Below, in pieces: positions 12,307 to 15,762 of a DNA stretch of 64,000 bases (positions are counted from its first letter, which is position 1; the number at the start of each line of letters is the position of its first letter). The notes beneath the pieces are model-generated. The model was not told the origin of the DNA. It saw only the letters and a program-made list of their open reading frames with translations, and searched no databases. Where the stretch lies: assembly GCF_053078305.1 (NCBI RefSeq), contig NZ_CP166879.1. One strand, written 5' to 3'. Both the position numbers and the translations under genes were made by a program.

Positions 12307-13239
12307 ATGACTGATATTAACGATGTAATCAAGACCATTGATGAACTTATTGATGGCGGCGTACTGACGCAGTATGCCATCGCCAGAGAGGCGGGAATTT
12401 CCGACGGCACATTATCGGCTTTCCGTAAGGGAAAATATAAAGGCGATAACGCTGCTGTGGCTGCTTCCCTGCGTTCCTGGTATGAGAACTGGAATAAACA
12501 AAGCGCACTGCCGGAACCGCCGCAGTTTGTGGAAACGCAGACAGTCCAGGAGCTGCGCGCACTGTTTCAGGCGGTTCGTCTGATGGGCTGTATTAACGTT
12601 ATTGTGGGCGTACCGGGTGTGGGTAAAACGGCCACTGCCCGTAATTACTGCCAGGAGCAACCAAACACCTGGATGATCACCCTGTCACCCGCGCACTCCA
12701 GCGTCACGGAGTGTCTGCTGGAGCTGGCCGATGCGCTGGGGATTGATTACACCCGCGCGAACAAAGGGGCATTATCCCGCGCCATCCGCCGTCGCCTGAT
12801 GGGAACGCGTGGACTGGTGATTGTGGATGAGGCGGATCATCTTGGTATTGACGGTCTGGAGCAACTCCGGGCAATTCAGGACGCCACGGGGATCGGGATG
12901 GTGCTTATTGGTAACCCGCGCGGATTGTTTAAAGGTGGACGCCGCGCCTTTGATGATTTATCGCGCCTGTTCAGCCGTCTTGCCCGTACAAAACAACTTC
13001 GCAAGGCCAAAAAGGCGGATGTGCTGGCCATTGCCAGGGCATGGGGTATCAGTGGTGAGGCCGAGCTGGCCGTCATGCAGGCTATCGCTGAAAAGCCCGG
13101 TGCGTTACGTGTTCTGACACATACGCTTAACCAGGCGTGGCTCACAGCCAGCGGTGAAGGCGCGGCGCTGACAGAAAAACATATTAATGCGGCCTTTAAA
13201 GAGGTTTATACCAACCCTGAATTACTCTCACAGGTGTGA
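12307..13239 (+). CDS. MuB-like AAA+ ATPase, transposition target activator
   Basis: 310 aa; Walker A GVPGVGKT; Walker B VIVDEADHL; clear similarity to Mu B as recalled. Confidence 0.9.
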   Translation: MTDINDVIKTIDELIDGGVLTQYAIAREAGISDGTLSAFRKGKYKGDNAAVAASLRSWYENWNKQSALPEPPQFVETQTVQELRALFQAVRLMGCINVIVGVPGVGKTATARNYCQEQPNTWMITLSPAHSSVTECLLELADALGIDYTRANKGALSRAIRRRLMGTRGLVIVDEADHLGIDGLEQLRAIQDATGIGMVLIGNPRGLFKGGRRAFDDLSRLFSRLARTKQLRKAKKADVLAIARAWGISGEAELAVMQAIAEKPGALRVLTHTLNQAWLTASGEGAALTEKHINAAFKEVYTNPELLSQV

Positions 13240-13463: not shown

Positions 13464-13730
13464 ATGAGGTGTTATATGAATATGCAATCCTGCGGTAACA
13501 AAATGAATTTATTCGACTCCCTGAACAGCGCGCGCCGTCTGACCGAACTTGCCGGTGCGGTACTGGAACGCAGTAAGCGCTATCCGCAACGTTTTGCACT
13601 GAAAACCACGCCGCCGGTAGGCAACGTGCAGGGAACCGGTGAAATTGAAATCACCATACAGACCAACGGCCTGCGCCGCCGTGTGAAGGCCACCCGCATC
13701 AGCGGCTGCACGGTTTACTGGGAGGTGTGA
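13464..13730 (+). CDS. early-region hypothetical protein
   Basis: 88-aa ORF tightly packed in early operon. Confidence 0.4.
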   Translation: MRCYMNMQSCGNKMNLFDSLNSARRLTELAGAVLERSKRYPQRFALKTTPPVGNVQGTGEIEITIQTNGLRRRVKATRISGCTVYWEV

Positions 13731-13731
13731 G

Positions 13732-14013
13732 GTGAAAAAAAATCTCATTGCATGGGCGTGGTCGAGTGGTCTTATTGAGTTTGGTTACGTCCTGCCGGAA
13801 GGTGCATTGCCGATAGTTGCCGGAAAGCCTGTCACGGTACGGCATGTGATTGAGGTTATGGCGCGTCATGGACGTGATGAACAGGAGCAGTTACTGGTTC
13901 CGGGGATACCGGAAGCGGTGACGGAGGAAGAAGCCTTTAATGCCATGATTCGGTTCTGCCGTGAGGTCAGACGCCGGGTCAGTTATCCAAACAGAACGAG
14001 GACCAGAGGATGA
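13732..14013 (+). CDS. early-region hypothetical protein
   Basis: 93-aa ORF, 2 bp after previous stop. Confidence 0.4.
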   Translation: MKKNLIAWAWSSGLIEFGYVLPEGALPIVAGKPVTVRHVIEVMARHGRDEQEQLLVPGIPEAVTEEEAFNAMIRFCREVRRRVSYPNRTRTRG

Positions 14014-14282
14014 GTAAAGTCGTACGCATTATTTTCGAATACAAGGAGCACGTTATCCATAAAAACGCTGATGGAACAGTGCGCATGGGGGTAAGTCTGG
14101 ACATACGTTCAACCGGGATAAAGCAGAAAGGTGATGGACCCGCCATGATTTTTGGAGTGGTTATGCTCGCGGAAAGCAGAGACTTTGCTGAACTTGTGGC
14201 AATGAAAGCCAGTGCGCTCATGAAAGATATGAGCATGCGTTCCGGGGTTATTAAAGGTAATGAATTTAATCAGCAGGGGTAA
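14010..14282 (+). CDS. early-region small protein, paralog 1 of tandem pair
   Basis: 90 aa; N-terminus MSKVVRIIFEYKEHVIHKNADG resembles next gene. Confidence 0.45.
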   Translation: MSKVVRIIFEYKEHVIHKNADGTVRMGVSLDIRSTGIKQKGDGPAMIFGVVMLAESRDFAELVAMKASALMKDMSMRSGVIKGNEFNQQG

Positions 14283-14286
14283 TTCC

Positions 14287-14580
14287 ATGAGCAAAGTACG
14301 CGTTATTTTTGAATTTAAGCATGTTTCGCATGACGAAAAACCGGCAGGTAATGACTGTGTTGAAGTGCATGAAAAGATTGGTGTGGATGTAAAAACAGAA
14401 CGTGATACGAATAACAGGCCGACGTCACTCTGTGACGTTTATGCAAGTATTCTCCAGTATCACAGTCCTGAAATTATTCAGTTTCTCTCAGCGGAATTTC
14501 AGGCATCTGTACAGGCTTTTGGGGCGGATGCCATCATTAAACGCCACCGCGTGCATAAAGCATCAGGCACACTGCAATAA
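14287..14580 (+). CDS. early-region small protein, paralog 2 of tandem pair
   Basis: 98 aa from internal Met; MSKVRVIFEFKHVSHDEKPAGN parallels previous ORF. Confidence 0.45.
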   Translation: MSKVRVIFEFKHVSHDEKPAGNDCVEVHEKIGVDVKTERDTNNRPTSLCDVYASILQYHSPEIIQFLSAEFQASVQAFGADAIIKRHRVHKASGTLQ

Positions 14581-14591
14581 GGAAAAACAAA

Positions 14592-15122
14592 ATGGCTAAA
14601 CGTGTTACAAAATTAAAGGCCGCAGCCGAGGCTGCACCGCAGACCCGCGAAGAAGTCAGCCGCGATATCCGTACCCTGGGCGATATTCAGCGAGAGGCGC
14701 TACGGCTGGAAACGGCGATGAATGATGAAGTGGCAGAAATCACCGCCCGTTATACGCCGCAGATTGAAAACCTTAAAAAAGAAATCAAAGTGCTTTTTAA
14801 GGGGATTCAGGACTGGTGCAAAACCAACCGCGATGAGCTGACGAACGGCGGCAAAACCAAAACAGTCAATCTGACCACCGGCACGGTGTCATGGCGGCTG
14901 GGAACGCCATCATGCAGCGTCAGCCGTGATGTGGAAGGTGTGATTGAAATGCTGCGCCGTATGGGGCTTGAGCGATTCATCCGCACGAAAGAGGAAGTGA
15001 ACAAGGAAGCGGTCCTGGCGGAGCCGGATGCGGTGAAAGGGATTGCCGGTATTAAGGTAAATAAAGGCGCTGAAAGTTTTTATGTCGAGCCTTTTGAACA
15101 GGACGCCGGACTGAATAAATAA
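14592..15122 (+). CDS. gam: Gam-like host-nuclease inhibitor (Ku-like DNA-end binding protein)
   Basis: 176 aa; strong similarity to Mu Gam as recalled (RLETAMNDEVAEITARY, NRDELTNGGKTKT, GLERFIRTKEEVNKEA). Confidence 0.85.
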   Translation: MAKRVTKLKAAAEAAPQTREEVSRDIRTLGDIQREALRLETAMNDEVAEITARYTPQIENLKKEIKVLFKGIQDWCKTNRDELTNGGKTKTVNLTTGTVSWRLGTPSCSVSRDVEGVIEMLRRMGLERFIRTKEEVNKEAVLAEPDAVKGIAGIKVNKGAESFYVEPFEQDAGLNK

Positions 15123-15219: not shown

Positions 15220-15762
15220 ATGGCATATTTTTATTTCAAATTAGACCGTGTGCAGACAAATAAATATTTCACCAAATATCAACAGACTGTTTTACCGCTA
15301 CGCAACAGTATTCTTCGGGCATTACTGAAAAATACAGGCGCTGCCGGATTGCGCTTAAAGCCGTTCGCCATGGACAGAATCAGTGAGTTTTATTTTTCCG
15401 GTGCTCTGCCTGCGGGCTGGCGTAAGCGCGATGATGTGGCTTTTATCGGGGACGGACCGTGCTTTATTGCCAGACCTGATGAGTTATGCCCTGAAGGACC
15501 GGCGATTGCCGCAATGGTTGAAGCCGCTGAACGCGATTTAAGAAAGCGTCCTGATTTCCTTGTCTGGCTCTGTGAAAAGCTGGGGGTAATGAGAATCCCC
15601 TCCATGTTTAACATGGACTCCTGGTGGACCCCGTCACTCTCCCGTGATGCCCTGTGCGTGGTGTTTAAAGTAGGCGCTTATGGCAGGGAAATAAACGGGT
15701 GTATTCCTGAAGAATGCCAGGAAATTAAACATTCTGAATATGTGGCGCTGACGGAGGAATAA
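15220..15762 (+). CDS. early-region hypothetical protein
   Basis: 180-aa ORF. Confidence 0.4.
   Translation: MAYFYFKLDRVQTNKYFTKYQQTVLPLRNSILRALLKNTGAAGLRLKPFAMDRISEFYFSGALPAGWRKRDDVAFIGDGPCFIARPDELCPEGPAIAAMVEAAERDLRKRPDFLVWLCEKLGVMRIPSMFNMDSWWTPSLSRDALCVVFKVGAYGREINGCIPEECQEIKHSEYVALTEE

Follow-up and report, generated by a model that had tools for sequence, protein, structure and literature searches.

Are two adjacent small phage genes that visibly share only their first codons related over their whole length, how did they come to stand side by side, and what might they do? The question is raised by a stretch of 64,000 nucleotides (nt) from Escherichia coli (contig NZ_CP166879.1, RefSeq assembly GCF_053078305.1; hereafter the window) with a Mu-like prophage in which two open reading frames (ORFs), ORF-A and ORF-B, lie head to tail on the + strand between kil and gam. 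The first-pass annotation described two adjacent ORFs of about 90 amino acids (aa) with a common N-terminal block, ascribed them to duplication and divergence in the semi-essential early region, and guessed at a host-interaction or anti-defence role. Its positions and quoted N-termini are correct, and the proteins are 90 and 97 aa long. The best overall explanation, to which we give a probability of roughly 0.6, is that a single family of small accessory proteins, which occupies one slot in the phage early operon, includes both ORF-A and ORF-B as highly diverged members.

Compared directly by BLASTP, the two proteins align only at their extreme N-termini (the first 17 residues of ORF-A with the first 15 of ORF-B), with 12 identities and an expectation value (E) of 9e-4 for the single comparison. 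The DNA of this block is 80% identical (36 of 45 positions), and identity in the remaining alignable protein is about 11% (8 of 70 residues). Profile-profile comparison (hhalign) of the A family with the B family aligns 74-77 columns with E from 1e-5 to 4.6e-7, the latter over 77 columns. With the N-terminal block cut from both alignments, the register is kept over 53 aligned columns (E 5.8e-5); the block-trimmed score is 27.1, compared with 10.3 +/- 2.3 and a maximum of 19.3 for column shuffles (z ~7), and none of 150 shuffles reaches it. Because the alignment survives removal of the block in register and stands above all shuffles, ORF-A and ORF-B are very probably true, highly diverged paralogs over most of their length. 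A hidden Markov model (HMM) of the B family, searched against 907 six-frame ORFs of the window and the Mu early region, returns ORF-A as its sole non-self match (E 3.1e-4 over 76 residues; the next match has E 1.9). Searched against 5,437 ORFs of 108 Mu-like loci, the same model matches every A allele nearly full-length (E 4e-7 to 6e-3) and an A::B fusion allele over half its length (E 7e-3); unrelated ORFs appear only from E 1.7, and proteins of the Mu gp7 type, at E ~0.6, are the only matches in between. Its coverage of ORF-A-type proteins is 76-84 positions. The pairwise and profile comparisons proposed by the first-pass annotation therefore reveal a similarity that exceeds a few chance residues, extends across a predicted β-hairpin and helices, and outlasts removal of the block.

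The predicted structures suggest why the block alone meets the eye. For ORF-B, AlphaFold2 with an 80-sequence alignment predicts a β-hairpin (residues 4-19 and 25-39), helices at 48-58 and 60-77, and a disordered tail (predicted local distance difference test, pLDDT, 85.7; predicted template modelling score, pTM, 0.71). For ORF-A, modelled from a shallow alignment (pLDDT 56), a hairpin (6-18 and 24-35) is followed by a helix (57-73), in the same order of elements as in ORF-B; this model is too weak for a fold search or a structural comparison with ORF-B. The predicted family fold is thus a long β-hairpin at the N-terminus that packs against two helices, with the first strand buried. That strand has the lowest column entropy of the B family (1.22 bits), with the motif M-[SA]-K-x-V-x-[VI]-I-F-E-[FYI]; variability peaks (2.0-2.3 bits) in the second strand, the loop at 40-47 and the tail. 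The N-terminal codons differ synonymously across subgroups, which indicates that the constraint on the first strand acts on the protein. The block would be the only similarity visible by eye because it forms the buried strand that the family conserves best.

Both PHROGs families to which the two proteins are assigned (Table 1) are labelled 'unknown function'; the hmmscan match of ORF-B to phrog_2230 is full length, with residues 3-97 on profile positions 1-88 of 89. Searches of Pfam, NCBIfam and PDB sequences found no match for either protein. The A family is narrow, confined to E. coli with at least 73% identity. The B family is broad: an exhaustive HMM and word-indexed search gathered 159 clusters, 25-40% identical to the window protein, most of them from Salmonella, others from E. 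coli, and single clusters from Serratia and Klebsiella. The hosts of phrog_2230 proteins are Mu-like prophages of E. coli, Salmonella, Citrobacter, Kluyvera, Klebsiella and Serratia. Proteins from Salmonella, Klebsiella and Kluyvera and the Mu-type 89-aa proteins are all assigned to it; the 89-aa "MAKVIFEF..." type of close Mu relatives and the Kluyvera protein do so with E 4e-37 and 2e-15, respectively. The fetched loci contain two further types, the Mu gp7 type (MAKVIIEIK...) and a 92-aa type (MAKLIIEIN...). Judged from sequence, its members are small, soluble accessory proteins (87-97 aa) restricted to Mu-like transposable phages; the family unites phrog_2230 with phrog_4107 and probably also includes phrog_10252 (Mu gp7, also called E6 or Gnarl2).

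The distribution among Mu-like phages, which the first-pass annotation had suggested checking, places this family in one position. A further 95 Mu-like loci were fetched through a MuB search, and occupancy was counted over 109 sources: 40 carry A and B, 23 a B-type gene only, seven a gp7-type gene only, seven the 92-aa (C-type) gene only, and 30 no member. The last are distant hosts or truncated contigs; no family member was detected in the fetched Mu-like loci of Vibrio, Avibacterium, Psychrobacter and Rhodoferax. There is no true case of A alone, the two apparent ones being a contig that ends after A and the A::B fusion, and no locus has both a gp7-type and a B-type gene. As a rule an element has one allele; ORF-A is a surplus copy that only one E. 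coli lineage carries. The family gene always follows kil and precedes gam, or a DUF3164 gene in Salmonella and Citrobacter; the position after kil is seen in the window, E. coli CI5, Salmonella, locus L008 and the Mu-type locus L086. We are confident that these genes form a slot, or cassette, family in a single variable position just downstream of kil. The region is present in 231 of 5,426 complete E. coli genomes (~4%). A tblastn search of 50,697 phage records matched only two Shiga toxin (Stx) phage records with an inserted Mu-like phage, and Mu itself was not matched.

The alleles in this slot recombine at the shared codons. Locus L008 has a single gene in which the upstream region and first codons of A, including A's extra codon, lead into the body of ORF-B, and in strain CI5 the B gene directly follows A's upstream region. 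In locus L009 the A gene bears the B version of the block. A 67-aa in-frame fusion joins A(1-49) to B(80-97) at a shared 'FG' with TTTTGG microhomology (P0036; L060 5778-6074). Among close Mu relatives, the ~80 nt in front of gp7-type and of B-type genes are nearly identical, and the two types diverge a few codons past the ATG. In strain 6817 (L010 2838-3131) the A protein is identical to that of the window, Gam is 99% identical in protein and ORF-B is only 59% identical, which shows that B is exchanged as a cassette; the synonymous divergence (dS) from the window is 0.92 for B and 0.19 for gam, a sharply localised allele replacement. On the evidence of these junctions, the conserved 5' codons are a homologous-recombination point at which alleles are swapped, fused and deleted. 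The A::B fusion is in addition a natural chimera that could help to map function. An obligate heterodimer of A and B was considered and is unlikely, as the same A protein is paired with B alleles that share only 59% identity, and B is often present without A.

How the second copy arose is less clear than that it is a relative. The similarity begins at the ATG itself and the flank upstream is not repeated; for this reason duplication in place followed by rapid divergence and capture of a second allele are not separable. The N-terminus of ORF-A is nearest to the E. coli type of B, and its body is further from E. coli B than Salmonella B is. ORF-A may come from capture of a second slot allele by recombination at the conserved 5' block. 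Of the duplication and divergence first proposed, then, the homology stands, and in-place duplication is not told apart from allele capture.

Pairwise ratios of nonsynonymous to synonymous divergence (dN/dS) against seven other prophages are 0.25-0.28 for ORF-A, with two low-divergence pairs outside this range, and 0.31-0.49 for ORF-B. For MuB, Kil and Gam they are 0.00-0.13, save one MuB comparison (with L004) at 0.23. The B alleles reach a dN of 0.3 and a dS of 0.7-0.9; dS in the neighbouring gam is ~0.18. This purifying selection marks ORF-A and ORF-B as real coding genes, and both evolve fast but under constraint. In several prophages (L012 2561-2832; P0040, P0041, P0053, P0061, P0062; L059) A or B is frameshifted or truncated, and RefSeq flags one A copy as a pseudogene, so that either copy can evidently decay in lysogens.

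These results bear on two readings in which the genes are not paralogs. In one, only the 5' block is common property: unrelated gene bodies would have been joined by recombination or gene conversion to a sequence at a module boundary. The abrupt end of BLASTP similarity at residue 17, the gap between 80% DNA identity in the block and 11% protein identity beyond it, the lack of any similarity upstream of the ATG, the breakpoints of hybrids and allele swaps inside or just after the block, and the L009 gene, whose block suggests gene conversion, would all be expected from it. It is nevertheless very unlikely, because profiles stripped of the block align 53 columns in the expected register above all 150 shuffles, the B model spans most of ORF-A, and the two proteins are similar in length and have their strands and helices in matching order; the block is just the stretch that the family as a whole conserves most. 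The other reading, that the resemblance arose by chance or that one or both ORFs are not genes, could appeal to a pairwise E of only 9e-4 in a window with many ORF pairs. It is already refuted: hundreds of genomes keep both frames intact, with dN/dS far below 1, ORF-A is the unique match of the B profile among 907 and again among 5,437 ORFs, and RefSeq annotates the two alike.

The only tested probable relative is a protein of Mu itself. Mu E6/Mup07 (gp7, NP_050611.1) was named Gnarl2 by Silas et al., Nat Commun 2025 (PMC12373910). In ECOR strains its expression moved the O-antigen ladder downwards and increased T5 infection up to 10^5-10^6-fold, and it behaved like O-antigen loss, not like loss of a specific immune system (PMC12373910). 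Mu gp7 matches phrog_2230 over its full length with E 0.009. By hhalign, the Mu-type B subgroup aligns with gp7 over 66-69 columns (E 9e-6 to 9e-5), and in a search with the HMM of this subgroup the gp7 proteins rank right after the true members (E 0.003-0.02), with unrelated ORFs only from E 2.2. The link thus runs only through the Mu-type B subgroup and the common slot, and on this basis Gnarl2 is probably a distant member of the family. Like ORF-A and ORF-B it is an early-operon protein (87 aa) of similar length and N-terminus (MAKVIIEIK) in the same slot after kil, and like the B type it is an alternative allele that follows nearly identical upstream sequence. A C-terminal His, which nearly all members from outside E. 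coli have, also speaks for its membership. Its identity to ORF-A and ORF-B is below 20%, and the arrangement differs in that Mu has a single copy, with gp6 separating gp7 from kil. Gnarl1 and Gnarl3, from lytic coliphages, are likewise small (40-90 aa), non-enzymatic variable-region proteins that alter lipopolysaccharide (LPS) or O-antigen (PMC12373910). They come from other phage types, and only Gnarl3 has a known partner (GalU, which it binds); they may be functional analogues.

On induction, ORF-A and ORF-B would be co-expressed with the rest of the early operon. They would act as small binders of one or more host proteins, a role that is probable because the proteins are too small and too variable for enzymes. 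By analogy with Gnarl2, the likeliest target area would be cell-envelope or O-antigen biosynthesis; an envelope- or O-antigen-directed function for ORF-A or ORF-B is possible, and we propose it tentatively. The two copies would probably differ in specificity, since ORF-A is basic and ORF-B, like the other subgroups examined, is acidic or near neutral. The host-interaction guess of the first-pass annotation fits the fast evolution and the probable kinship with Gnarl2. Comparable roles are found in the Mu-like phages of Pseudomonas, where the short early-operon proteins Tip (D3112) and Aqs1 (DMS3) bind host surface or signalling machinery and do not serve replication. They differ from ORF-A and ORF-B in hosts and targets (type IV pili, LasR), and no sequence similarity would be expected. 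A bolder extension would make the whole family, Gnarl2 included, a cassette system of small inhibitors of envelope or O-antigen biosynthesis, with the first-strand codons as a built-in recombination anchor for swapping, stacking or dropping specificities, and A plus B a two-specificity array that hits different host variants or steps; as a whole this is speculative and unlikely.

The main rival to an action on the envelope is that ORF-A and ORF-B inhibit intracellular anti-phage defence systems or nucleases, in the manner of anti-restriction or anti-abortive-infection proteins, with one target each. Their place in the early operon beside Gam and a gene labelled 'host nuclease inhibitor' in PHROGs would suit such a function, as would their rapid evolution and allele turnover by recombination, typical of arms-race genes, and their small size with no enzyme domain and no Pfam or NCBIfam family. 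We regard it as doubtful: sequence and fold searches gave no likeness to known anti-defence proteins, and Gnarl2, the probable relative and the only one tested, behaved like O-antigen loss (PMC12373910). The proteins could instead assist Mu-type transposition, replication or early regulation, perhaps as small DNA-binding proteins or as modulators of MuA, MuB or Gam, as their location between the transposition genes and gam and the basic character of ORF-A might suggest. This is improbable for genes that are hypervariable where MuB and Gam are under strong constraint, that are dispensable in many prophages (frameshifts, fusions, deletions), and whose B alleles vary beside an identical A and a 99% identical Gam. 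The family also went undetected in the fetched Mu-like loci of distant hosts listed above, and no DNA-binding motif or fold match was found for ORF-A or ORF-B.

Several observations weigh against uniting ORF-A and ORF-B in one slot family that extends to Gnarl2, or against carrying its function over to them. BLASTP by itself is limited to 17 residues; the profile of phrog_2230 does not match ORF-A at E <= 1, only phrog_4107 being listed; a whole-library search with a shallow B profile did not return ORF-A at E <= 0.001; and PHROGs keeps the three groups (phrog_2230, phrog_4107 and phrog_10252) separate. The ORF-A model is of low confidence, so the fold it would share with ORF-B is putative. 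Direct comparison of ORF-A or ORF-B with Mu gp7 is not significant, and after trimming of 10 N-terminal residues the hhalign score of the gp7 link (13.6) falls inside the shuffle range, with the helices still in register; the link thus leans largely on the N-terminal block. With less than 20% identity in a hypervariable family, function may not transfer from Gnarl2, whose affinity purification-mass spectrometry data were without clear pattern (PMC12373910). Strains of O157:H7 carry differing B alleles (H7 versus H25), one of the window type and one with 86% DNA identity over the 701-nt query. A simple match between B allele and O-serotype was considered and rejected on this ground.

The pair belongs to a kind already known, fast-evolving phage accessory genes in a variable slot of the early operon, and as such is a modest, largely ordinary finding. 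The analysis usefully contributes the joining of two, probably three, PHROGs families and a testable Gnarl2 lead; over PHROGs, the additions are the union of phrog_2230 with phrog_4107 by profile-profile comparison, the structure of the slot and the tandem arrangement. Small genes without a name abound in the early semi-essential regions of Mu-like phages, and two of these are now placed in one family. As this family probably includes the only tested member, Mu E6/Gnarl2, it yields a concrete and cheap hypothesis for LPS ladder gels and T5 plating. The natural allelic series of single, double, hybrid and fused genes can be used to map specificity, and the locus shows how a conserved first strand can mark the boundary of a recombination-prone cassette. 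If the Gnarl2 link fails, an ordinary diverged gene pair remains.

The features of the region are collected in Table 1. The order of the early genes (MuB, a small ORF, Kil, the phrog_1518 gene, ORF-A, ORF-B, Gam) bears out the earlier placement in the semi-essential early region of a Mu-like phage. The start codon of ORF-A overlaps the stop of the phrog_1518 gene in an ATGA, and 4 nt separate ORF-A from ORF-B on the same strand. RefSeq annotates the same genes in a prophage 99% identical to the window, and both proteins are identical to the RefSeq entries given in the table. The start of ORF-B follows RefSeq and all homologues; the longest ORF opens 27 nt further upstream, at 14260, inside ORF-A.

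Table 1. Features of the prophage early region around ORF-A and ORF-B (window coordinates)
Feature	Position	Strand	Remarks
MuB-type ATPase	12307-13239	+	
73-75-aa ORF	ends 13463	+	between MuB and kil
Kil-like gene	13464..13730	+	phrog_2679; PF26843 in related loci; RefSeq start 13476; conserved upstream boundary of the slot
93-aa gene, phrog_1518	13732..14013	+	between kil and ORF-A, variably present; stop codon overlaps ORF-A ATG
ORF-A, 90 aa, isoelectric point (pI) 9.45 (basic)	14010..14282	+	phrog_4107 (E 1.1e-61); WP_000049432.1; lineage-specific extra paralog
Shared 5' block of ORF-A, codons 1-17, MSKVVRIIFEYKEHVIH	14010..14060	+	predicted first β-strand; recombination point
ORF-B, 97 aa, pI 6.6	14287..14580	+	phrog_2230 (E 1.3e-40); WP_000049304.1; widespread slot family
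Shared 5' block of ORF-B, codons 1-15, MSKVRVIFEFKHVSH	14287..14331	+	36/45 nt identical to the ORF-A block
Gam (host-nuclease inhibitor)	14592..15122	+	PF07352 (E 6.4e-42); conserved downstream boundary of the slot

An Rfam search of the ORF-A/ORF-B region matched no family, and promoter and terminator motifs occur there at a frequency not above that in shuffled sequence. As no internal promoter or terminator was seen, both genes would lie inside the early polycistronic operon. An RNA-level or regulatory cause of the conserved block was rejected on these two results together with the synonymous codon variation in the family.

Some minor observations concern the surroundings of the pair. An 85-aa antisense ORF (13979-14236, - strand) overlaps ORF-A and is probably spurious. 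The phrog_1518 gene, which carries the PHROGs label cited above and has a weak winged helix-turn-helix Pfam match, is mostly deleted in CI5, 2012EL-2448 and the Stx1 phage record (L003, L004, L013), where only its 3' end is kept before the next gene. The two Stx-converting phage records that contain the region are LC727881.1 and LC727895.1 (H1, H2); their depositors' annotation describes a Mu-like phage inserted in an Stx prophage. In Salmonella and Citrobacter the gene immediately after the B-type gene encodes a 212-aa DUF3164 protein instead of Gam (L005-L007 4303-4941; L014). The operon has a second variable slot after gam, occupied in the window by a 180-aa gene (phrog_2260, 15220-15762), which in some otherwise similar prophages is swapped for a DUF5420 protein (L004 3758-4336) and in others is absent. 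Lastly, nearly all members of every subgroup from outside E. coli, gp7 included, end in His (…NIH, …SMH, …AKH, …QKH, …KAH, …TCH), and the C-termini of the E. coli proteins differ from these, ORF-B ending in …GTLQ and ORF-A in …NQQG.

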